From NCBI GenBank assembly GCA_016840425.1, contig JAEOSI010000068.1, positions 1-9,768 on the forward strand: 9,768 nucleotides of DNA, read 5' to 3'. The translations under genes and the position numbers were made by a program. The notes below the pieces were generated by a model, which did not search any database, was not told the DNA's origin, and saw only the letters and a list, made by a program, of their open reading frames with translations. This DNA comes from Candidatus Wukongarchaeum yapensis. Lineage in GTDB: Archaea > Asgardarchaeota > Wukongarchaeia > Wukongarchaeales > Wukongarchaeaceae. Below are positions 1-9,768 of this stretch, in pieces. Each line of letters begins with the position of its first letter. Position 1 is the stretch's first letter.

Positions 1-207
1 GGGGGAGAACTTAATTGGAGTATGATTAAAAGCGGTTTAGTAGATGAGATAAGATTAACGATTGCACCAAGAATTCTTGGAGGAAATAAAGCGATAAGCT
101 TGGTTAGTGGCGCAGGGTTTCAAATGATAGATGAAGCGCCGAATCTTTCTTTAATAGATGTTAAAAAAGAGGGAGATTATGTGATTCTAACATATAAGCG
201 GATATAA
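1..207 (+). CDS. arfC: 3' end (5'-truncated by window) of 2,5-diamino-6-ribosylamino-4(3H)-pyrimidinone 5'-phosphate reductase, RibD_C family, archaeal riboflavin pathway
   Basis: The frame is open from base 1: GGELNWSMIKSGLVDEIRLTIAPRILGGNKAISLVSGAGF. This matches the RibD_C C-terminal signature (EGG)GxLNW...GLVDE....IAP.I.GG, including the LNW typical of the archaeal MJ0671-type reductase. The ATG at 22 in the ORF track is internal. Stop TAA at 205-207. Confidence 0.85.
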   Translation, partial: GGELNWSMIKSGLVDEIRLTIAPRILGGNKAISLVSGAGFQMIDEAPNLSLIDVKKEGDYVILTYKRI

Positions 208-218
208 TACTGTTATTT

Positions 219-731
219 TTAATCTATGAGAACGATCGAGTACCAGTTTTGTTCTTCAGTTTTATCTTTTAGTGTTTTTATGTAGAATCCTTGTTTTTTG
301 ACTGTTTCAAAGATGTTGATACCTAAGCTTGAAGGTGATGGTCTAGCCTTTTCTGGGTGGGGGCAGGGTTCTGGATATTTGCATGGTTCGCAAAGGGTAC
401 AATTGGCGATAGAAAATGCTAGGACATATCCGTCTAAGAATGCTTTTCTTTCAACTTCAAAAGCGATTCTTTGGTTGTCTTTATATGTATATGCATGGAT
501 TATCAAGGCCCAGTCATAGCAGGTTAGAAATCTTTCTTTGAAAATCCAGGGAGTTATGTCATGTTGGCGTGGGCACATCCAGTGGGTAAAGTAAAATGGA
601 CAGCCAAACCTGCATTTGAGCCTGATTCTATTATCAACTATTACGGCGGAAGCAGGGATTATTTCCGCGTTAACTGCTCCTTTCTCTTTTGCAAAATCTT
701 CATATTTCAAAAACTCGCTTATCGAAGCCAT
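219..731 (-). CDS. DUF2284-like Cys-rich predicted metal-binding protein (170 aa)
   Basis: Two Cys clusters: C40-x3-C44-x8-C53 (KCRFGCPFYFTHWMCP) and C111-x2-C114-x2-C117-x5-C123 (CTLCEPCKYPEPCPHP). These are followed by ARPSPSSLGINIF, matching the DUF2284 pattern P..ARPS...GI.V as recalled. Confidence 0.8.
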   Translation of the reverse strand: MASISEFLKYEDFAKEKGAVNAEIIPASAVIVDNRIRLKCRFGCPFYFTHWMCPRQHDITPWIFKERFLTCYDWALIIHAYTYKDNQRIAFEVERKAFLDGYVLAFSIANCTLCEPCKYPEPCPHPEKARPSPSSLGINIFETVKKQGFYIKTLKDKTEEQNWYSIVLID

Positions 732-762
732 TTTCAGCTCTTTAATTTTCTTTCCGGTCTTT

Positions 763-780
763 TTTTAAAATGTTTTAAAA
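763..780 (-). promoter_or_regulatory. Two tandem TTTTAAAA TATA-like boxes upstream of the DUF2284 gene
   Basis: TTTTAAAA at 763-770 and 773-780 (10-bp period), 32-49 nt upstream of the ATG at 731. The spacing is compatible with an archaeal TATA box, but the AT-rich background weakens the call. Confidence 0.35.
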
Positions 781-819
781 TTAGAATTTAAAAAATGATC
801 CATTTTCGCGTTTTTGTTT

Positions 820-1614
820 TTAAAACATTTTTGGGGCCTGAAATTTTGAAATGATATGGTTAGTAATAGCTTCTACAGATAGTTTTAGGAGGCTTTCACC
901 TTTTTCGGCTGATGATTGTTCTATGTTTGATGCAAGTACGCCGCTTTCACTTAGTAATGTCCAGGGGAGGTCGTCTAAATTATCTATAACGCGGTCATCC
1001 CACTCGTTTACAGCTAAGTTCAAACGTACTAATTCTGGTCGAAGGTGTAATATGAGGGAGGTTTCAATAGCGCCAGCGTGAAGATCTTTTTTACCGAAAA
1101 GTTCTACAAACTGTTCCCTAAGGAATTTCCAAGGGTTAAGAAACTCGACTTCGAGCTTTTCTTTTTCTTCTATTCCGTTTTCTTCTAAAGTGTACTTTCT
1201 AGCAGACTTTATGGTAGCTTCATATTTTTTGAAAACTGGGACATTGCCGCCGTGCCAGTAAACGACTCCGAGATATTTTACACCACTTTGTTCAAGAGAT
1301 TGAAAGATATCAGCAAGCAAAATAAGCAAAGTTGTCGACCTAAGAGAGATGGTTCCTGGAACGCCTAAATGCTCTTTAGAACAACTGTATGGTAGGATGG
1401 GTAAAAGGTAGGCGTCTATTTGTTCGCTAACTTTCTTCGCTATTTCTTCAGCGATTATTAGGTCTGTAGCAAGGGGCAGATGAGGTCCGTGTTGCTCGAT
1501 CGATCCTACAGGCAATATAGCTGTTTTAGACTCGATTTTTTCAAGATCATACCATGTTTGAGTTTCCCAAAGCTTCAAACTCGATTTGCCTCCTTTATTT
1601 TTTGAAATTAACAT
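820..1614 (-). CDS. Creatininase-family amidohydrolase (creatinine amidohydrolase / ArfB / MftE superfamily); the real start may be TTG at 1578
   Basis: Family metal-binding motifs are all present: GSIEQHGPHLPLATD, EHLGVPGT, HGGN, DLHAGAIETS, and C-terminal SESGV...SAEKG. A GGAGG lies 10 nt before an in-frame TTG at 1578. Confidence 0.9.
   Translation of the reverse strand: MLISKNKGGKSSLKLWETQTWYDLEKIESKTAILPVGSIEQHGPHLPLATDLIIAEEIAKKVSEQIDAYLLPILPYSCSKEHLGVPGTISLRSTTLLILLADIFQSLEQSGVKYLGVVYWHGGNVPVFKKYEATIKSARKYTLEENGIEEKEKLEVEFLNPWKFLREQFVELFGKKDLHAGAIETSLILHLRPELVRLNLAVNEWDDRVIDNLDDLPWTLLSESGVLASNIEQSSAEKGESLLKLSVEAITNHIISKFQAPKMF
1589..1593 (-). promoter_or_regulatory. Shine-Dalgarno GGAGG for an alternative TTG start (1578) of the creatininase-family gene
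   Basis: The minus strand reads AAAGGAGG-caaatcgagt-TTG AAG CTT TGG. The TTG is in frame (36 nt downstream of the ATG at 1614) and removes a low-complexity MLISKNKGGKSS leader. Confidence 0.5.
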
Positions 1615-1619
1615 GTTTT

Positions 1620-3248
1620 TTAAGCTTTATGCTTGACATGAGTTATAACGCCGATTCCTTTAGTTCGCCCTTCACGGAAAACAAACCGCATACCAGGCAC
1701 AATATATTCTGGTCTACAGATGAACTGGAAAAGTATCGTAGAGCGATCTCCTGTCCTTAGATATTTTTTATTCATCCACAAAATGCGGGCTGTTTGTTTT
1801 ATTGTGTGGCTGTGAATAACTGCTTGATAGCCGGTCTTGATTGTGGTTTTATGGTAAAGTATCATGCATTTTGCTTCAAATTCTCTGACCGCTTCTGGGC
1901 CTAATTCTTGGCTTACTAGTACCTGCCCTTTCCTAACCTCTTCTCTTTTAATTTTGTGGAGGGCAAAGGCAGCGGTTTGACCTGCAATCACCCGTCTTAC
2001 TGGGGTACGTTTATAGTGGATTGATTTGACGCGTACTTTCCTAAAATCACCGTCATCAAAGGGTCCGAGAAGTATTTGTTGGTTTACTTCTAGGGCTCCT
2101 GAAAGCACTGTGCCGGCCACAACTGTTCCTACACCAGTCACGGAAAATACTTCATCAATAAAGGTTGAAAAGGGTTGGTCCATCTTCTCTTTGAAGTCTC
2201 TTACCTTAGGGAGAAGGTTAAAAAAAGATTTTAGGAGGTCTAGACCTTCTCCTGTTGTGTTGCTTGCGAGGAAAACGGGAACGATTCTATATCTTGCCCC
2301 AGTAAACATGCTTTTAGCGCAAACAACTGCATCATCCACATCCCTGACTATTACAGGAATCTTATCCACGCCTGGTAACTTTAAGAGGCGCTGTAAATCT
2401 TCAATAACTTTATTGAGAACCTCTTTTGGTGCAAGATCTATCTTTGTGATTACGGCGAATATTGGGTAACCCAAAGCAAGGGCTACGCCTAAGTGTTCCT
2501 TGGTCATGGGAAGGACTCCCGCGTTACCCGCCACCACAAGCATGGCGTAGTCTGACGAATAGCCTACTAAACCAAAAATAGTTGTTCTTAAGTATTTTTC
2601 ATGGCCTGCAAGATCGATGAAGTTTATTATTTTTGATGAATGGGCAAGGATTTCAGCGTCTCCAGGGGGGGATGGGGGTAGGTAGTTTACAATCTCTCCT
2701 CCTTCGTCAAAGCCTAGAATTCTCGTGGAGATTGAAGATGTTCTACCGGATAGGAGTTCGTGTTTATGCCTGAATAGGAGAGTTCTTGCAGATCCATTGC
2801 CATCGTCAAGTTTCCCGCTTATCAGGACTCCTGCAAGGGTGGATTTTCCAGAGTCCACGTTGCCGATTTGAGCAATATTTATATCTATTGGGAAGCTTTC
2901 TTCATGGAAACGCCTGACTAGGATTTCAGCGATTTTTCCCTTACGGCCTTCCCCCACCCTTATAACGGTTAGCTGAGCTTTTATTTTTTCAGCCATCAGT
3001 TTTAGGACTTCGAGACTTTTTTCAAGCTCTTCCTCAGATATTCCTAACGGTTCCCCATCGTCAGTAACACCTAAGACGTAAACAGCTTCACCTTCCCCTT
3101 CATTTATCCTGTAATTCATTTGGGTGGCAAGGCTTTCAAGCTTTTCCTCACTAATATAACGTACAGGAGTTAGCTTAAGCTTGTATTCTAGGTTTCCTGT
3201 CTCTTTTTCTTTTACGCCTATACTGTTTTCAATATCAGGGAAACTCAA
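1620..3248 (-). CDS. GTPBP1: GTPBP1/GTPBP2-family translational GTPase (archaeal aGTPBP; EF-Tu/eEF1A-like G, II and III domains plus an N-terminal AlbA_2/Schlafen-like domain), TTG start
   Basis: G1 GNVDSGKST, G2 region SGRTSSIS, G3 DLAGHEKY, G4 TKID. Family-specific segments: GNLEYKLKL, LATQMNYRINEGEGEAVYVLGV, LFRHKHE, DDAV, GPFDDG, LRTGDRS and the C-terminal FVFREGRTKGIGVIT. Confidence 0.95.
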   Translation of the reverse strand: MSFPDIENSIGVKEKETGNLEYKLKLTPVRYISEEKLESLATQMNYRINEGEGEAVYVLGVTDDGEPLGISEEELEKSLEVLKLMAEKIKAQLTVIRVGEGRKGKIAEILVRRFHEESFPIDINIAQIGNVDSGKSTLAGVLISGKLDDGNGSARTLLFRHKHELLSGRTSSISTRILGFDEGGEIVNYLPPSPPGDAEILAHSSKIINFIDLAGHEKYLRTTIFGLVGYSSDYAMLVVAGNAGVLPMTKEHLGVALALGYPIFAVITKIDLAPKEVLNKVIEDLQRLLKLPGVDKIPVIVRDVDDAVVCAKSMFTGARYRIVPVFLASNTTGEGLDLLKSFFNLLPKVRDFKEKMDQPFSTFIDEVFSVTGVGTVVAGTVLSGALEVNQQILLGPFDDGDFRKVRVKSIHYKRTPVRRVIAGQTAAFALHKIKREEVRKGQVLVSQELGPEAVREFEAKCMILYHKTTIKTGYQAVIHSHTIKQTARILWMNKKYLRTGDRSTILFQFICRPEYIVPGMRFVFREGRTKGIGVITHVKHKA

Positions 3249-3276
3249 TCTTAAGGCCTACCAACCCATAAATATC

Positions 3277-3355
3277 TAAAAAAAAGTGCAATATCCTTTT
3301 AAAAGATACTGTTTAATAAAACAAAGAGCAATATCCTTTTAAAAGATACTGTTTA
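3277..3355. repeat. 40-bp-period tandem duplication in the divergent intergenic region
   Basis: 3277-3315 TAAAAAAAAGTGCAATATCCTTTTAAAAGATACTGTTTA versus 3317-3355 TAAAACAAAGAGCAATATCCTTTTAAAAGATACTGTTTA: 37 of 39 positions identical. The 28-bp core is exact (3288-3315 = 3328-3355). Each copy contains the perfect palindrome CTTTTAAAAG (3296-3305, 3336-3345). Confidence 0.95.
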
Positions 3356-3405
3356 TTTTTACATCAAGACAAAACCACTTCAAGGGTATATGACGGGGTA
3401 TAGTC

Positions 3406-3900
3406 ATGCCTGATAAGATGAACGGTGAGATCGTTTGGAACAAATTTAAAGAAGTGAAAAAGCGTGTTGCAAAACTTAGGGAGGAGAAGGATTATCTTGT
3501 GTTTTATAAAGCGCTTAAAATTGCGAAGGAACGAGAAGAAAAACTGTTAAGCCAAGAGGAAGAAAAAGGTTTCTCGGAAGCCCTAGAAGAGACGGGAGGA
3601 GAAAAGTTGACGGAAGATATGGACGATAATTTCAAAAAGATCTTTGAAACGGTTAAAGAACGCGATGAAAACGTTATAAGTATCATGATGGAAAAAATAC
3701 CACGTGTAATCCAAGAAACGGGAGAAATTGAGGATAAAAGATATAAAATAATTGATCTAAAAAGCTATTCTCCTTTTGTTAAAGGATTAGCCTTTGCAAA
3801 AGAAAGGGAAAGACGACAAGAAAACTACATAAAAATAAAAAAGAAGGAAAAAAGGCATGAAGTACCTTTAAAATTAAAAACAAAGAAAGAGCCTTTTTAG
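3406..3900 (+). CDS. Hypothetical highly charged, predicted helical protein (164 aa) with three internal repeats and a Lys-rich tail
   Basis: It fills an otherwise empty ~500-bp gap, starts with ATG and has the K/E-rich composition of the neighbouring soluble proteins. A recurring F.K.[LF]..[AV]KER[ED] motif at aa 33, 76 and 124 argues for a real protein. No family recognised. Confidence 0.75.
   Translation: MPDKMNGEIVWNKFKEVKKRVAKLREEKDYLVFYKALKIAKEREEKLLSQEEEKGFSEALEETGGEKLTEDMDDNFKKIFETVKERDENVISIMMEKIPRVIQETGEIEDKRYKIIDLKSYSPFVKGLAFAKERERRQENYIKIKKKEKRHEVPLKLKTKKEPF
3831..3853 (-). terminator. Candidate oligo(T) archaeal terminator for the HAD gene, embedded in the 3' end of the opposite-strand ORF
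   Basis: The minus strand reads TTTTTTCCTTCTTTTTTATTTTT, 44-66 nt downstream of the HAD stop (3897-3899). There is no intergenic space, because the two genes overlap by 4 bp. Confidence 0.35.
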
Positions 3901-4697
3901 TCCTTCATGAGGTCTGCTATGGAATTAAGCACGAGGTTAGGTTTTGTTTCATTTATTAGATGTTCTTCACTCTTACCTGTGCCTGTTCTAACAAAAACTG
4001 TGAAAATTCCAGCTGCTTTACCTGCTTTTATATCGGTTGTAATTCTATCTCCAACACACACCGCTTCTTCAGGTTTTATACCTGCTTTTTCTAAACCTAA
4101 ACGGATTAGGAACGGATTTGGCTTTCCAATAACTGTTAAAGCCTTTCTTCCTGAACATATTTCAACAGCCGAAACTAAAGCACCCGCCCCTGGTATAGGA
4201 AATTTTTCAGTGACTAAAAAAGGATCATCGTTGGTAGCAAGGAGTTCTGCGCCATTATAAAGATGTTTTAAAGCGGTGGATAATTTTGAATAATTAAAAC
4301 CCTTATCTAAGCCCACAACAACAAAATCAACAGATTTATTATCCTCCTCATCAACCACTTTTAAACCCGCATTTGAAAGCTCTTCTTTTAGACCGGATTC
4401 ACCGATCACGAAGACACGATTAGCTCTTTTTTCTTTAAGATAAAGGGCAGCTCCATAAGCGCTAGTGAGCACTTCATCAAGCCTAAACTTTTCCCCAAAC
4501 AATTTTTGAAGCTTTTCAACATAAGAAACACGACTTTTAGTAGAATTATTTGTAAGCAAAAAACAAAACAAGCCACGTTCACGTAAAAACTTGATAACTC
4601 GACTAGCACCGTGAATAGGCCGATTACCCATCCATAAAACCCCGTCACCATCAAGGAAAAACAAATTTTTATCCCGAAGAGGCTCAATCAACTCCAA
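3897..4697 (-). CDS. HAD-superfamily subfamily IIA phosphatase (NagD / Pho13 / phosphoglycolate phosphatase-like), TTG start
   Basis: Motif I DGDGVLW, motif II LTNNSTKSR, cap-region VVVGLD and ATNDD..PGAG, motif III GKP, motif IV GDRITTDI, then VRTG. Substrate not determinable from sequence. Confidence 0.92.
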   Translation of the reverse strand: MELIEPLRDKNLFFLDGDGVLWMGNRPIHGASRVIKFLRERGLFCFLLTNNSTKSRVSYVEKLQKLFGEKFRLDEVLTSAYGAALYLKEKRANRVFVIGESGLKEELSNAGLKVVDEEDNKSVDFVVVGLDKGFNYSKLSTALKHLYNGAELLATNDDPFLVTEKFPIPGAGALVSAVEICSGRKALTVIGKPNPFLIRLGLEKAGIKPEEAVCVGDRITTDIKAGKAAGIFTVFVRTGTGKSEEHLINETKPNLVLNSIADLMKD

Positions 4698-4705
4698 TTA
4701 GAAAA

Positions 4706-4710
4706 TCCTC
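4706..4710 (-). promoter_or_regulatory. Shine-Dalgarno GAGGA upstream of the HAD TTG start
   Basis: The minus strand reads TAGAGGA-ttttctaa-TTG, an 8-nt spacer. Confidence 0.5.
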
Positions 4711-4754
4711 TAAACCGTTTTTTTCCGCTTAATGTATATTTTTTTACAATAATC

Positions 4755-4762
4755 TATAAATA
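4755..4762 (+). promoter_or_regulatory. TATA-like box TATAAATA in the 79-bp divergent HAD / GT-C intergenic region
   Basis: TATAAATA at 4755-4762. It is rather close to the ATG at 4777 and better spaced for a leaderless start at the in-frame GTG at 4786. Confidence 0.35.
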
Positions 4763-4776
4763 TCCTGATTTTTAAA

Positions 4777-6045
4777 ATGAATGGCGTGATTAATCTTCCA
4801 TTTTTTTCACAATTTAAACGAAATAGACAATTAGAGCTCATTATATTCGTCTCTGTAATCATACATGCTATACTTCTCTTATTCGATCTTTTCATGACTC
4901 ACATTTTTAACAAGGAGACTTTATCTGGTGTAACTTTTGGATTAATGACAGATAGAGCTCCCGATATAGAAGTTTACGAGGCTCGTTCTAAGACGATTTT
5001 AGAAGGAGGAGTTTTGTATCGTGACGTTTATACTGAGAATCCGCCTTTAATCCAATACTTATTAGTTTTACCATATGTGGCTGGTGGGAGCATTTTCGCT
5101 TATCAAATCTACTTTTCAGCTTTTAACATACTTTCAGCGATCCTAATCTACAAATTCCCTTTAACCGAGGATAAAAAGTTGGAGTTTTACGCCAGTTTAC
5201 TCTTTATTACAAATCCGCTAACTCCCATTGTTGCCGTACTTAAAGTAACGGACGAACCTGTTTGTGTGTTTTTCTTTTTACTCCCTATCTATTTTCTTTT
5301 AAAACATAGATTACGATTAGCAAGCCTATTTTTAGCGATAGGATTTCTCGTAAAATTTTTCCCGATATTGCTATTACCGATACTCCTCAAAGAGGAAAAG
5401 AAATGGCTTGAAAGACTGATTTTACTGGGAATTACTTCCGTTACGATAGTCTTAATATATTTACCCTTTTACCTCATCGCTCCAGACGAAGTAATGCACC
5501 CAATAAGAAGGTATTTTATAAACCAAAAAGTTGAAGGTAGTGGTCTCTATACAATCATTGTTCATGATGCCGATATTAGCTTGCCAGACATCACAAAAAG
5601 GCTATTAATCATCCCAATAGTCCTTACATACGGTTTTGTCTTTAAAAGAAACTACGATCCTCTCAAGTCAATTGCTATTATAATAATAGTCTTTCTCATG
5701 GTATACACAAAAGTACACTTTGAATATTACTTATATGCGATCGCTCCAATCTCTTTCTATGTCGTGGAACCATCAATTAAAATAGCATCTTACTATGTTT
5801 ACGGTCTAATAGCATTAAGAACCCACGAATGGCGACACGACTCCTTACCCCTAGTTCTAGTACATGTAATTATCCTTGTATTAATCAGCATATTTCTAAT
5901 CATAACAATAATCAATACAAAAGAAGAAAAAGAGGCAGAAATAGATACTGGTAAGATGGTCGAATTCTACCGATACATAGTACTGATTTTAGTTGCATTT
6001 TTCATGTCTCAATGGGTATTCGTGAGGTTATGTGACTATTACTAA
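4777..6045 (+). CDS. Multi-pass membrane GT-C glycosyltransferase, GT87 (DUF2029) / PIG-M-like, copy 1
   Basis: After the first TM helix comes PDIEVY...ILEGGVLYRDVYTENPPL (D..VY, G..Y, PP). Later motifs are TNPL, VTDE, FLAIGFLVKFFP and VYTKVHFEYY. Many hydrophobic segments. Confidence 0.8.
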   Translation: MNGVINLPFFSQFKRNRQLELIIFVSVIIHAILLLFDLFMTHIFNKETLSGVTFGLMTDRAPDIEVYEARSKTILEGGVLYRDVYTENPPLIQYLLVLPYVAGGSIFAYQIYFSAFNILSAILIYKFPLTEDKKLEFYASLLFITNPLTPIVAVLKVTDEPVCVFFFLLPIYFLLKHRLRLASLFLAIGFLVKFFPILLLPILLKEEKKWLERLILLGITSVTIVLIYLPFYLIAPDEVMHPIRRYFINQKVEGSGLYTIIVHDADISLPDITKRLLIIPIVLTYGFVFKRNYDPLKSIAIIIIVFLMVYTKVHFEYYLYAIAPISFYVVEPSIKIASYYVYGLIALRTHEWRHDSLPLVLVHVIILVLISIFLIITIINTKEEKEAEIDTGKMVEFYRYIVLILVAFFMSQWVFVRLCDYY

Positions 6046-6076
6046 AACTTCGCTCTAATGAAAGAGTTCAAATCGC

Positions 6077-6091
6077 TTTTTTACCCCTTTT
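6077..6091 (+). terminator. Candidate oligo(T) terminator between convergent GT-C genes
   Basis: TTTTTTACCCCTTTT lies 32-46 nt after the stop at 6045, within a 56-bp convergent gap. Confidence 0.35.
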
Positions 6092-6101
6092 CAGAATCAA
6101 G

Positions 6102-7406
6102 TTAGCGGAGGAGATAGTAGTACTTGATAAGAGCGTAATAAAGTGGTATATTGAAGGCTGCAACACCTATTGCGTATCCAAGATAGTAAACACCGGTAGG
6201 AGATAATTCAAAATAATTCTTGTAAGTCAATTGTGCAAGGATTAATGTTGCAGGAATTAGCCACGATGCAATGAATAGTTTTATACTGAAAAGTTTGTGG
6301 GGATTAATCTTGCTATAAAGGGTCGAATACCAGGCTACAAGCATGCCTAACCAAGGCATAGAATACATGAAATATTGAGGCAAAGCTGTCATACTTAAAG
6401 CAATAAAGCCCATGGTCCATAAAAAGGCGAGGAAAACAAATTCAATATCTTTTAACACATCTTTATTACTAATAAACTTCTTTGTAACAATAATAAGAAA
6501 ACTTATCTTTAGTAAATATTCGAGTGGCGTTAATTGGTGAACTAGTGTAAGATCATAATTTTTCCAATATCTATTCTTTGGAACACTTCCTACTGAATCT
6601 GGATAATAATGAGAAAATAGGTGAGCAAAGTAACCGTATACAGTCACACGAGGCCTTGCAACCCTAGCAAAAGTTAAACTATAATGAACGAAATTATTAA
6701 AATCTAAGATCCAGAATGGAAAGGTTACAATTACACAAAAACTTATTACAATAGCGAGATAATGCATTAGGGGTTTATTGGACAAGAATCCCCAGTAAGA
6801 ACTTGTATGTTCTGTTTTTGTTTTTTTCCAAATCTGGATCAAATATGGCACGAGAACTAAAGCAGCTACATATTTGAACATGACGCTAACGGCTAAAAAA
6901 AGAGCTGATGTTTTCAATTTGTCCTTTTGCAGGAAATAGAAAGATAGAAGAATAAAAAATAGTGGGACAGCATCAAAATGGCCCCAACTCATCGAATTAA
7001 TTATATCAAGAGGGTTCACTGCGAGGAACAGAGCTGCAATGATAGCTTCACGCTGCGAGAATATGTTTCTTGCAATGATATATATAACTAATATATTTAG
7101 CATTGAAAAAATGAAAATAAAAGCTTTCACACCATCAACACTGGGGTCTCTTCCAATTAATTTGAACCAAAGTGCTAGAGTGTAAGACCATAAGGGCGGA
7201 TGGATGTCTCTGAAATCACGATAGGGAACTTCACCATCTAAAATAGCGTTAGCTCTTCCTACATAAAGTCGAACATCCGTCGTTTCTGTTTCCAATACCG
7301 AGTAAAAAAAGAATGGTATTCTTAAAAGGAATCCTGTAATAAAGATAATGATGAAGTATTTATGAGCATTGATAACTTCACGGAGATTATTCTTAAAAGA
7401 TATCAT
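6102..7406 (-). CDS. Multi-pass membrane GT-C glycosyltransferase, GT87 / PIG-M-like, copy 2
   Basis: Motifs TDVRLY...ILDGEVPYRDFRDIHPPLW, AVNPLDI, WGHFDAVP, VSVMFKY and ALPQYF follow the PIG-M/GT87 order (D..Y, G..PY, P, NP, G..D, K, QYF). Confidence 0.85.
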   Translation of the reverse strand: MISFKNNLREVINAHKYFIIIFITGFLLRIPFFFYSVLETETTDVRLYVGRANAILDGEVPYRDFRDIHPPLWSYTLALWFKLIGRDPSVDGVKAFIFIFSMLNILVIYIIARNIFSQREAIIAALFLAVNPLDIINSMSWGHFDAVPLFFILLSFYFLQKDKLKTSALFLAVSVMFKYVAALVLVPYLIQIWKKTKTEHTSSYWGFLSNKPLMHYLAIVISFCVIVTFPFWILDFNNFVHYSLTFARVARPRVTVYGYFAHLFSHYYPDSVGSVPKNRYWKNYDLTLVHQLTPLEYLLKISFLIIVTKKFISNKDVLKDIEFVFLAFLWTMGFIALSMTALPQYFMYSMPWLGMLVAWYSTLYSKINPHKLFSIKLFIASWLIPATLILAQLTYKNYFELSPTGVYYLGYAIGVAAFNIPLYYALIKYYYLLR

Positions 7407-7506
7407 GAGGCGTTCTAGACTCCTTTTGGATTATTACGCTGATTCTCGGCGAAATGTACGCATCAATATTGTTTGTTTAGGGATTCTTCTGTTTATTAAG
7501 GAGATA

Positions 7507-8838
7507 TTAAAAGTTTTTTTGTGCTAAAATATCTAGTTTTGAGTAATATTTAAAAAACGTATAGAATAGCGGAATATCCAAAGATAAAACACCAAAAGCA
7601 TATACAATGTAAAAGGTACTCTTTGGATACAGGTAAAAGTGATTCCAACGGCACAAGTATGCAAAGACTATTGCTGCGGGAACGATCAAAGATGCTATTA
7701 TTACCATGTCAAAAATTTTGTTAATATTAATTTGAGTTATATATCGAGCTACTAGTATACCTAGCCAAGGCATTAAATGCTCAAAGTAAGGTGGATTAGC
7801 AGAAATACTAAGCGAAATATATAGAGCTGACCAGAGAAATGCTAAGTATACAAACGTTATATTATCCAAACCTTCTCTTTTACTAAGAACTTTTTTCGTT
7901 ATAATTAAAAGGAATCCTAATATAATTATGAAAGCTATTCTGCCTAATTCAAATATCCAATCAGATCCTGGATGATAGTAATTATAGGCATGAGCTATAA
8001 ATCCGTATATACTTATTCGAGCTTTCAGATCCCGAGCAAATAGTGTTGTGTAAGAATAGTAATTGTCCCAAGCCATAATGATGAATGGTAAAGCTATAGC
8101 AAAACAGAAACCTATAACCGTTAAGAAGTAAGCCCATACAATCTTATTACGTAAAAAGCTAAGACTATTCTTTGAGCTTTCTTTCTCGCTATTTTTCCAG
8201 ACGTATATGAGGTAAGGGACGAAAATTAGGGCAGTAATATACTTGAACATAATACCTATACCTAGGATTAAGGCTGATAATTTCCACCTCCATTTTTGCA
8301 AGAAATAAAAGGAAAGAAGGGCGAAAAATAGGGGAACGGCATCATACCTTATAAACATCATTGAACTAAAAATATCTAGGGGATTTACAGCAAAGAACAA
8401 AGCTGCGATAATGCCTTCACGTTGTGAGAACAAGTTCTTAGCCAGTAAGTAAATAATAAGAATGTCTAACATGCAAAAGATAAAAATGAAAGCCCTCACC
8501 CCGTTCTGACTAGGATCCTGACCGATCAATTTAAACCAAGCAGCTAAAGAGTAAGACCACAAGGGAGGCTGAATATCCCAGAAATCACGATAAGGAACTT
8601 TTCCCTCAAGTATGGACTTAGATCGACGAACATAGAGTTTGACATCTCCACGATAACGACCCATTGAGGAAGGAGGGAAAAGAATAAAAGGTATTCGTAA
8701 TAAGAAACCGATGGCAAAAACTAGGACAAAGTATTTATGGATTTTTAACGTTTTTTTAAAACCGCTCAAAACAGTAGATGAACTGAGTGGATTAGGAAGA
8801 CGGGTTGTTTTTTCTGCTATTTCCTGCGATTTCGCCAT
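7507..8838 (-). CDS. Multi-pass membrane GT-C glycosyltransferase, GT87 / PIG-M-like, copy 3 (close paralog of copy 2)
   Basis: Motifs GDVKLY...ILEGKVPYRDFWDIQPPLW, AVNPLDI, FIRYDAVP, IGIMFKY and NPPYF. A hand alignment with copy 2 gives 68 of 92 identities, without gaps, from the loop-1 Asp to NPLDI. Confidence 0.85.
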   Translation of the reverse strand: MAKSQEIAEKTTRLPNPLSSSTVLSGFKKTLKIHKYFVLVFAIGFLLRIPFILFPPSSMGRYRGDVKLYVRRSKSILEGKVPYRDFWDIQPPLWSYSLAAWFKLIGQDPSQNGVRAFIFIFCMLDILIIYLLAKNLFSQREGIIAALFFAVNPLDIFSSMMFIRYDAVPLFFALLSFYFLQKWRWKLSALILGIGIMFKYITALIFVPYLIYVWKNSEKESSKNSLSFLRNKIVWAYFLTVIGFCFAIALPFIIMAWDNYYSYTTLFARDLKARISIYGFIAHAYNYYHPGSDWIFELGRIAFIIILGFLLIITKKVLSKREGLDNITFVYLAFLWSALYISLSISANPPYFEHLMPWLGILVARYITQININKIFDMVIIASLIVPAAIVFAYLCRWNHFYLYPKSTFYIVYAFGVLSLDIPLFYTFFKYYSKLDILAQKNF

Positions 8839-8924
8839 ATAACTTCCAATCCACCAGTCATTTGGAGCAATTAGTTTAACACAGGTATTAAATTTATCTT
8901 CTTTAGCTCTAATTTCTGGTTTTG

Positions 8925-9768
8925 TTATTTCTGACCCTTTAATTCTTTCGAAAATAGTAAAAATATGAGGGGTATAATGGCTGATGAATATATTATGACT
9001 ACCCCTAAAGCAAAGAGGGGCAAATCTTTAAAGTATTCATATTCCAGCCTGTAAACAAGGAATATCGCCCAATTAGCCATATAAAAGGTGCTCATGTGTA
9101 TTATGAAGGGTTTTTTTCCTGTTTTTATTAAGGATATGGAGAGAGGTAAAAAGACAGCAGGTATAATAAAGTATTGCAGAAGCACGTGTTTATTCAAAAG
9201 AAGGAAGGTAAGATAAAATGTGATTACAAAAACTTCAAGGCAAAACATTCTCCTTTTCTTTAAAGAAAATTTGCAGGAGAATATAAACAAAGCTGTTATA
9301 ATGGTGAGAAATATTGCTTGAATGATAAAGGGGAGATTGTATTCTAAGGATGTATCTCCTGAAATTTCGCTTGCTACTTTCCAAACGCTAAAGCCTCTTG
9401 CACCTATTTCTGTGTGTTCGAAAACGGTATCATCAAAATATTTTTCGCCTGCCAGATAAATAAAGGGAGAGAGGATTATTAAAACGGTTGTTATGGTGAT
9501 TATCATATATTTTACTAGCGATTTTTTTGATTTCATGTTGAGAAGAAAGGGTGGTAAAAAGAGAGCTGAAAAGTAGGTATACATAATTGCTATGCCCATC
9601 GTGATAGCGCTTTTTATCTCTTGTCCATTTTTAAGGGTTAATAAGGAGATCATGAGTAGGGTTGCTGGTATTATGTAATGACGGCCATAGTATGCCGAGT
9701 TAGCAAATATAATAGGGTTTAAAGCAATCATTAAAAGAAAAATCAGCAAAGAAAGCTTGTTTGGTGCT
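8925..9768 (-). CDS. Multi-pass membrane GT-C fold protein, GT87 / PIG-M-like, copy 4 (5'-truncated by window; divergent)
   Basis: The frame stays open past the track's TTG at 9749 to the window edge (APNKLS-LLIFLL), so the true start lies outside. ALNPII...YGRHY...GIAIMYTYF aligns without gaps to the paralogs. LLNKHVLLQYF resembles the PIG-M NK....QYF motif. Confidence 0.75.
   Translation of the reverse strand, partial: APNKLSLLIFLLMIALNPIIFANSAYYGRHYIIPATLLMISLLTLKNGQEIKSAITMGIAIMYTYFSALFLPPFLLNMKSKKSLVKYMIITITTVLIILSPFIYLAGEKYFDDTVFEHTEIGARGFSVWKVASEISGDTSLEYNLPFIIQAIFLTIITALFIFSCKFSLKKRRMFCLEVFVITFYLTFLLLNKHVLLQYFIIPAVFLPLSISLIKTGKKPFIIHMSTFYMANWAIFLVYRLEYEYFKDLPLFALGVVIIYSSAIIPLIFLLFSKELKGQK

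Follow-up and report, generated by a model that had tools for sequence, protein, structure and literature searches.

Organization of the glycosyltransferase array

We analyzed a stretch of DNA from the Asgard archaeon Candidatus Wukongarchaeum yapensis (GenBank assembly GCA_016840425.1, contig JAEOSI010000068.1, positions 1 to 9,768), the right half of which carries four adjacent genes, here named g1 to g4, for GT-C glycosyltransferases. This stretch, hereafter the window, is a whole contig of 9,768 bp from a 2.16-Mb genome that is in 277 contigs and 92% complete. The first gene, g1 (4777-6045, + strand), is an open reading frame with a translated product of 422 residues that belongs to subfamily B. 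The other three belong to subfamily A: g2 (6102-7406, - strand), an open reading frame translated into 434 residues; g3 (7507-8838, - strand), an open reading frame whose 443-residue protein was modeled; and g4 (8925-9768, - strand), which is cut by the contig end, leaving in the window the C-terminal 280 residues of a 399-residue paralog. By these coordinates g1 converges on g2 with 56 bp between the two stop codons (6046-6101) and no gene in that spacer. A preliminary description of the window, made from its letters, had reported four consecutive membrane-protein genes, one forward gene converging on three reverse genes, with nothing interrupting them; its coordinates are exact.

The array comprises five genes, with unrelated genes on both sides. 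The reverse complement of the window end (9625-9768) is identical at every base to the last 144 bases of contig C207 (14678-14821). The resulting joined contig of 24,445 bp is carried, with the same genes, by an independent Joint Genome Institute (JGI) assembly, and the same order is present in the European Nucleotide Archive (ENA) and in other JGI assemblies. The assembler evidently broke within a paralog-rich region. Full-length g4, encoded by window 8925-9768 together with 14322-14819 of C207, has 399 residues, the first 119 of them on C207, and is identical to database protein P0023. Upstream of g4 on C207 lies g5, a fifth paralog of 421 residues, followed by genes for a Zn-ribbon coiled-coil protein, a metallophosphoesterase and topoisomerase VI. 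The earlier suggestion that the cluster might run on past the window is therefore correct, and the continuation amounts to one paralog, g5. Contigs C21 and C191, whose ends also carry truncated paralogs, were considered as the continuation and rejected, since neither overlaps the window end.

The four window proteins are homologous far beyond chance. BLASTP aligns g2 and g3 at 48% identity (E 1e-134), g1 with g3 (E 4e-15) and with g2 (E 8e-15), and g4 with g2 (E 1e-6) and with g3 (E 4e-6). All five proteins of the array have about 400-440 residues (399 in g4), 11-12 membrane helices and no soluble domain.

The proteins share one order of motifs: a loop-1 Asp, G..[PL]YRD, PP, NP, an acidic residue 14 positions after that Asn, a Lys 33 further on, and [QE/P]YF. 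This order had been read from the translations, and alignment and codon positions bear it out. In g3 it runs D65-x3-Y69, G79-x2-P-Y83-x-D85, P91-P92, N152-P153, D166, K199 and [Q/E/P]-Y351-F. Checked codons place Asp65 of g3 at 8644-8646, Tyr69 at 8632-8634, Asp166 at 8341-8343, Lys199 at 8242-8244 and Tyr351 at 7786-7788. In g2, codon and motif positions were checked for Asp44 (7275-7277), Asp145, Lys178 and Gln344-Tyr345-Phe346. In g1, the checked codons are those of the putative catalytic Asp63 (4963-4965), Glu160 (5254-5256), Lys193 (5353-5355) and Tyr317 (5725-5727).

The fourth gene departs from this pattern at two positions. It had been described as having only the later motifs and as lacking both the acidic residue and the Lys. 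The first half of that description falls away once C207 is joined: full-length g4 has the early motifs GDAALY, G-K-V-P-Y-R-D and PPL, which seemed to be missing because the contig ends there. The second half holds, with a Tyr (9675-9677) in place of the sugar-binding acidic residue and a Thr (9576-9578) in place of the Lys.

The conserved residues align with those of Gpi14 and, by motif position and spacing, correspond to those of PimE. In the Gpi14 structure of C. glabrata (CgGpi14), D39 serves as catalytic base, mannose is bound by E140 and K173, and Y319 holds both the phosphate and the ring oxygen (PMC12653191). Alignment pairs D65, D166, K199 and Y351 of g3 with D39, E140, K173 and Y319, and the acidic residue and the Lys are 33 positions apart in both proteins. 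The loop-1 Asp that aligns with D39 is near-invariant, being present in g3 (D65), g2 (D44), g1 (D63), full-length g4 and g5. The acidic residue, the Lys and the Tyr are kept in g1, g2, g3 and g5; the Gln equivalent to CgGpi14 Q318 is kept in g2 and g4. In PimE, D58, Y62 and K195 are essential (K195A abolishes activity) and D160A reduces activity (PMC12041525). Judged by motif position and spacing only, D58 and Y62 share the D-x3-Y spacing of the array proteins, K195 lies near K199 of g3, and D160 near D166. By motif position, this PimE-like set of D-x3-Y/W, acidic residue and Lys is present in g1, g2, g3 and g5, and its last two elements are absent from g4.

The array is flanked by housekeeping genes, both in the window and on the joined contig. 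The left half of the window encodes a DUF2284 protein, a creatininase-family protein, a GTPase, a 164-residue protein and a HAD-IIA phosphatase. The GTPase (1620-3248, - strand; 542 residues) resembles translational GTPases of the EF-Tu/SelB type and has an extension of ~120 residues ahead of its G domain. Its best NCBIfam matches, SelB and EF-1-alpha, are all far under the cut-offs, and it is 92% conserved in the congener, a second genome of the same genus. The 164-residue protein (3406-3900, + strand) is highly charged, has no family match and is 78% identical in the congener; its gene shares 4 bases with the end of the convergent HAD gene. On C207, 8 kb upstream of the array and separated from it by the topoisomerase VI genes, lies a gene for a geranylgeranyl-reductase-family flavoprotein (3778-5046, - strand). 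It could saturate archaeal lipids or dolichol; we claim no link to the array.

Family relationships and predicted fold

Profile searches place the array among GT-C glycosyltransferases and spread its members over more than one family model. Two genes pass the Pfam PMT_2 model (PF13231; cut-off 26.1), g2 with 45.5 and g3 with 53.5 bits, and neither g1 nor g4 matches it; PMT_2 is a broad family defined by the N-terminal module, so membership does not specify function. Against GT87 (PF09594; cut-off 25), g4 (40.0 bits) and g3 (27.2) score over the cut-off, and g5 (20.6), g2 (20.3) and g1 (9.8) under it. The sole window gene with sub-threshold Pfam matches only is g1. Among NCBI protein names, a close ortholog is a "glycosyltransferase family 39 protein" and relatives are "glycosyltransferase 87 family protein".

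GPI mannosyltransferase 1 (PIG-M, Gpi14; GPI, glycosylphosphatidylinositol) is the only protein of solved structure that the array detects by sequence. A profile of 13 paralogs and orthologs, searched against all PDB sequences, matched this enzyme only, over nearly its full length (23gx_B, E 1e-24; 9wno_A, E 4e-22). The two subfamily profiles, searched separately, again found it alone (A, E 1.9e-21; B, E 1.2e-16). PimE, PIG-U, ALG3, ALG6, ArnT, protein mannosyltransferase (PMT) and oligosaccharyltransferase (OST) were undetected in the PDB by these profiles, at E <=10 for the all-paralog profile and E <=1 for the subfamily profiles. As a single query against the PDB, g1 found no match.

The array genes nevertheless appear to lie outside PIG-M proper, since they score under the PIG-M cut-off and their DxD is out of the PIG-M register. 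The best score in the genome against PF05007 (PIG-M; cut-off 23.4) is 19.4 bits, on g3, and hmmscan gave no row for this model at E <=1. Against a hidden Markov model (HMM) of yeast PIG-M, the window genes score 21.7 (g1), 20.1 (g4), 19.8 (g2) and 11.4 bits (g3). Higher scores occur elsewhere: 66 bits for an Ignisphaera GT87 protein, 51 for an Asgard protein of another family, and 46.5 for a paralog on contig C21 (7923-9095), the most PIG-M-like of this genome, which has a D-Y-D motif. In the loop-1 DxD of PIG-M, both Asp residues are required (PMC12653191). The array proteins keep the second, catalytic-base Asp only; the position of the first is R, T, A and R in g3, g2, g1 and g4, respectively. 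Subfamily B has a D-x-D/E, two residues downstream of the register of the PIG-M DxD. The identification of these proteins as PIG-M/GT87-like GT-C enzymes is therefore upheld by profile match, by fold (below) and by conserved catalytic and donor-binding residues, and their membership in PIG-M proper is not.

The predicted structure of g3 confirms the GT-C fold. A first AlphaFold2 model reached a predicted local distance difference test (pLDDT) score of 66; with an alignment of 117 sequences this rose to 88, with a predicted template modeling (pTM) score of 0.90. The model contains the conserved N-terminal seven-helix module and the variable module by which this fold is recognized. Compared with about 30 GT-C structures it gives Z scores of 20-32, best at full length. 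In VIA-align comparisons, the closest structure is ALG3 (Z 32.0 over 351 residues; root-mean-square deviation (rmsd) 3.2 Å), followed by Gpi14 (Z 30.9; 390/407 residues; 4.0 Å), PIG-U (Z 28.6; 376/420 residues; 3.8 Å), ALG6 (Z 26.2; 387/479 residues; 3.8 Å) and PimE (Z 24.0; 356/383 residues; 5.2 Å). ArnT, PMT and OST align over the N-terminal module only (Z about 19-21; rmsd 3.4-5.5 Å). The proteins g1 to g5 thus belong with the compact GT-C enzymes represented by ALG3, PIG-M and PimE, a type whose known members all act on lipid-linked acceptors.

This ranking of folds bears on whether the enzymes might instead act directly on proteins or protein-bound glycans, as PMTs do or as AglS does on the S-layer N-glycan of Haloferax, with no lipid-linked intermediates. 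Archaea do add the last mannose of a protein-bound glycan outside the cell, through AglS. The PMT_2 matches of g2 and g3 (45-53 bits), the family 39 name of the close ortholog, and the structural matches to Pmt4 and Pmt1/2 (Z 19-21) are all consistent with such a role. Yet PMT, OST and ArnT fall some 10 Z units under ALG3 and Gpi14, aligned over one module, no PMT is detected in the PDB by profiles at E <=10, and the array proteins have no soluble acceptor-binding domain comparable to MIR in PMTs or to the C-terminal domain in OST. We consider direct action on proteins unlikely.

Phylogeny, distribution and selection

The array proteins fall into two prokaryotic clades apart from eukaryotic PIG-M. 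In a maximum-likelihood tree of 86 rows, g2, g3 and g4 lie in clade A (support 98) and g1 and g5 in clade B (support 97); the remaining rows of both clades are metagenomic proteins and one deltaproteobacterial protein. Yeast PIG-M, the only eukaryotic PIG-M in this tree, from which PimE, PIG-U and ALG3 sequences were left out, forms its own long branch on a poorly supported backbone. Approximately unbiased (AU) tests reject neither PIG-M as sister to clade A (p 0.42) nor as sister to clade B (p 0.15). The tree thus neither refutes nor confirms the kinship with PIG-M that was first proposed; in our reading, this prokaryotic family is one from which, or beside which, eukaryotic PIG-M arose.

The abundance of paralogs is specific to this genus among the genomes searched. 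By local HMM search this genome contains 12 paralogs, and the congener has at least eight copies, including the g1-g5 array and an extra g3-like copy. The 29 other Asgard genomes have 0-2 weak copies each; the PIG-M-like paralog family is present in 16 of the 31 genomes. Conservation of the array among these genomes ends at the genus boundary. We therefore read the 12-copy expansion as a lineage-specific elaboration of the cell surface and not as a conserved Asgard GPI pathway.

Within the genus, g1 to g5 behave as real genes under purifying selection, judging from comparison with the congener. Each copy has a one-to-one ortholog there, with ratios of nonsynonymous to synonymous divergence (dN/dS) of 0.17-0.30: 0.21 for g1, whose ortholog is 90% identical, 0.17 for g2 and 0.20 for g4. 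Synonymous divergence from the congener is about 0.76 for g2 and g3 (L096, 8655-12249), and 0.22-0.31 for g1, g4, g5 and the elongation-factor-like gene. The g2 and g3 values are about three times those of their neighbors, and one further g3-like copy is present in the congener, which suggests that genes in the middle of the array have undergone turnover or conversion.

Such turnover speaks for a reading in which most copies are redundant recent duplicates without distinct roles, or in which several have a non-catalytic, scaffolding part like that of PIG-U in the GPI transamidase. The close structural match to PIG-U (Z 28.6) fits a scaffold role, and so does g4, in which two donor-binding residues have been lost; the corresponding residues of Gpi14 bind the donor, and those of PimE are important for its activity. 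The congener ortholog of g4 carries the same Tyr and Thr substitutions, and g4 is probably either non-catalytic or a user of a changed donor, reminiscent of PIG-U. For the array as a whole, however, general redundancy or scaffolding is highly improbable. The two subfamilies are old, being 24-32% identical, each with distant relatives of its own. Every copy has its own ortholog under constraint, and g1, g2, g3 and g5 keep all key residues.

Donor, acceptor and comparison with known systems

A sister cluster in the same genome combines the paralogs with candidate genes for donor supply. On contig C21 (398-10350), two GT2 genes, an SDR gene and a gene for a 345-residue membrane protein are interspersed among five further GT-C paralogs. 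The best NCBIfam matches of the GT2 proteins, all under the cut-offs, are dolichyl-phosphate hexose transferase, ArnC, PgfS and PpgS. The SDR protein is LegB/RmlB/GalE-like, of the sugar-nucleotide dehydratase/epimerase type. In a relative, contig L114 likewise carries a g3-like gene with a GT2, an epimerase and a UDP-glucose dehydrogenase. A search of the genome for a synthase of the dolichyl-phosphate-mannose type had been suggested; the genome contains two polyprenyl-phosphate-sugar-synthase-like GT2 genes, both of them on C21. These genes, together with the residue counterparts in Gpi14 and PimE, point to the use of a polyprenyl-phosphate-sugar donor. The genome also encodes AglB.

The 345-residue membrane protein (6159-7196 of C21, - strand) has no Pfam match. 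Its nearest ESM-Atlas clusters carry PIG-V (PF04188), with a score of 0.98; the likeness to PIG-V is based on ESM-Atlas features only and is a lead only.

The genes that act with PIG-M in eukaryotic GPI synthesis were not found in our searches of this genome. PIG-X/Pbn1 (PF08320) gave no match at E <=1. The PIG-A domain (PF08288) and PIG-L (PF02585) gave none at E <=0.1, and PIG-L was positive in 9 of 14 control genomes. Scans for the GPI8 C13 peptidase (PF01650) and GAA1 (PF04114) were blank, as were those for PIG-V (PF04188) and PIG-B (GT22, PF03901), which had no match in any control genome either. These blanks are soft, as the genome is 92% complete and a first pass missed a weak C13 match that hmmscan later found. 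The preliminary description had proposed a scan for PIG-A, PIG-L and GPI8/GAA1-like genes, and none was found.

The C13-like match is on C207 (472-1725, - strand), in a gene for a 417-residue protein that has a signal anchor at its N terminus, caspase-like and CARDB domains, and a membrane helix at its C terminus. As a GPI8 candidate it was rejected: it scores 24.7 bits against C13 and 64 against C14, and its PDB relatives are metacaspases. It is predicted to be an extracytoplasmic, membrane-anchored, metacaspase-like peptidase.

Candidate genes for the synthesis of an inositol lipid are present, and they say little about the acceptor. The genome has an inositol-1-phosphate synthase and a likely archaetidylinositol-phosphate synthase, a CDP-alcohol transferase that matches the latter family best, with 154 bits (cut-off 180). 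Inositol-phosphate synthase occurs in 29 of the 31 Asgard genomes and is thus near-universal, so its co-occurrence with the paralogs is uninformative on the acceptor. An inositol-lipid acceptor is pure conjecture.

Better archaeal candidates for PIG-M lie elsewhere. A gene that exceeds the PF05007 cut-off is present in 16 of 251 Asgard genomes. The top scores (46, 43 and 42 bits) belong to another Asgard family, f16 (G040:C5, G020:C167 and G057:C27), in which the genes are single copy, encode 421-428 residues and match over nearly the full length. By sequence, these single-copy genes make better PIG-M candidates than the window genes.

These observations bear on the product first proposed for the array, a GPI-like glycan, or one like the phosphatidylinositol mannosides (PIM) and lipomannan (LM), built on archaetidylinositol, which would make the paralogs the prokaryotic counterpart or forerunner of lumenal GPI mannosylation. 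In mycobacteria, many GT-C enzymes can build one phosphatidylinositol-anchored lipoglycan. Several points speak for a product of this kind: no protein of solved structure other than PIG-M is related by sequence, the donor-binding residues of PIG-M are retained, and the genome has the inositol-phosphate and likely archaetidylinositol-phosphate synthase genes as well as the DPM1-like GT2 genes and PIG-V-like protein of C21. A 2026 phylogenomic study reports that eukaryotic GPI-anchor synthesis is Asgard-derived (PMC12872458). Against it stand the sub-threshold PF05007 scores of all window genes, the missing first Asp of the DxD, and the absence from the searches above of PIG-X, PIG-A, PIG-L, transamidase and Gaa1 genes, the only C13-like match being a metacaspase. 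In addition, the distribution of inositol-phosphate synthase shows no link to that of the paralogs, the f16 genes score over the PIG-M cut-off, and in structure g3 is as near to ALG3 as to Gpi14. With the array confined to one genus as well, the GPI-like product on an inositol lipid or protein anchor is not sustained, and we judge it improbable. The more general part of the proposal, that these enzymes transfer sugars from lipid-phosphate donors at the outer face and probably act in series, is sustained as to family and general chemistry.

A related and slightly more doubtful idea is that the PIG-M-like paralogs, the DPM1-like GT2 proteins of C21 and the PIG-V-like protein together build a glycosylated (e.g., mannosylated) archaetidylinositol glycolipid or lipoglycan at the outer face, a free, protein-independent "proto-GPI". 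Few known archaea are as closely related to eukaryotes as the Hodarchaeales. If the idea were true, the lumenal glycan-building half of GPI synthesis would predate the N-acetylglucosaminyl-phosphatidylinositol and transamidase steps, in the archaeal lineage closest to eukaryotes.

We propose that the array encodes dolichyl-phosphate-sugar-dependent enzymes of the GT-C class, products of lineage-specific expansion, and that they lengthen a surface glycan carried on a lipid, a reading to which we assign a probability of roughly 0.6. We favor a lipid-linked glycan as the acceptor because lipid-linked substrates are used by each of the five solved proteins closest in fold. By homology with Gpi14 and PimE, GT2 synthases such as the two on C21 would make dolichyl-phosphate-hexose on the cytoplasmic face, and this donor would be flipped to the outer face. 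There it would be held by Lys199, Asp166 and Tyr351 (g3 numbering). Asp65, which would sit at the tip of the first outer loop with Tyr69 bracing it, would deprotonate an acceptor hydroxyl, leading to an inverting transfer. The acceptor would most likely be a dolichol-linked oligosaccharide, later moved by AglB to surface proteins, and alternatively a membrane glycolipid. Acting in series, the g2/g3/g4 and g1/g5 groups would probably differ in the sugars or linkages that they add.

Several points weigh against this proposal. We hold a dolichol-linked N-glycan precursor to be somewhat more likely than a glycolipid as the acceptor because of the structural tie between ALG3 and Gpi14 and the missing GPI genes, and for no other reason. 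The profiles detect PIG-M and not ALG3, which favors the glycolipid side. The window itself contains no GT2, flippase or sugar-nucleotide gene. Donor sugar, acceptor and product are putative.

The locus has value beyond the question of its product. An Asgard link for GPI synthesis has already been published (PMC12872458); the window genes are not the orthologs wanted for the question of GPI origin, which the f16 single-copy genes fit better. What the window offers is a set of intact, conserved PIG-M-like genes fit for expression and assay. The genus-specific expansion to 12 copies of a compact GT-C enzyme implies an unusually elaborate surface glycan or glycolipid. In g4, it includes a conserved copy without donor-binding residues, which recalls how PIG-U became a non-catalytic GT-C subunit.

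Among known systems, Gpi14/PIG-M (GT50, PF05007; PDB 9wno, 23gx) is the sole solved protein detected by profile. It shares with the array a 12-helix GT-C fold, the catalytic-base Asp, G-x2-P-Y, P-P/T-P, N-P, the acidic residue, the Lys at +33 and Q-Y-F. Unlike PIG-M, however, the array genes score under the family cut-off, lack the first Asp of the DxD and occur as five tandem copies, with 12 in this genome, rather than one. PIG-M is placed on a separate long branch. Neither its obligate PIG-X/Pbn1 partner nor PIG-A and PIG-L, the makers of its glucosaminyl-phosphatidylinositol acceptor, was found in this genome.

Bacterial systems offer a second comparison. The mycobacterial pathways for PIM, LM and lipoarabinomannan (LAM), and the bacterial systems that combine a GT2, a flippase and a GT-C enzyme (PMC11127046), resemble C21 and L114, where GT-C paralogs stand beside GT2-like and sugar-nucleotide genes. 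They differ in that a GtrA-type flippase was not identified here and the window array has no GT2. The polyprenyl-phosphate-mannose mannosyltransferases of the PimE/GT87/DUF2029 group (PF09594; PDB 9dm5, 9dm7) are compact and without a soluble domain, as are the array proteins, of which g4 and g3 pass the GT87 model. D58, Y62, K195 and D160 of PimE have counterparts here by motif position and spacing. PimE is nevertheless a weaker structural match (Z 24.0, rmsd 5.2 Å) than ALG3 or Gpi14, and the profiles did not detect it at E <=10.

The third comparison is with ALG3, the dolichyl-phosphate-mannose:Man5GlcNAc2-PP-dolichol alpha-1,3-mannosyltransferase (GT58; PDB 9s6r). Although it is not matched by the sequence profiles and is 11% identical, it is the top structural match to g3 and is likewise a compact GT-C enzyme. 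ALG3 itself works on the non-cytoplasmic face, where it lengthens an N-glycan precursor that is linked to dolichol.

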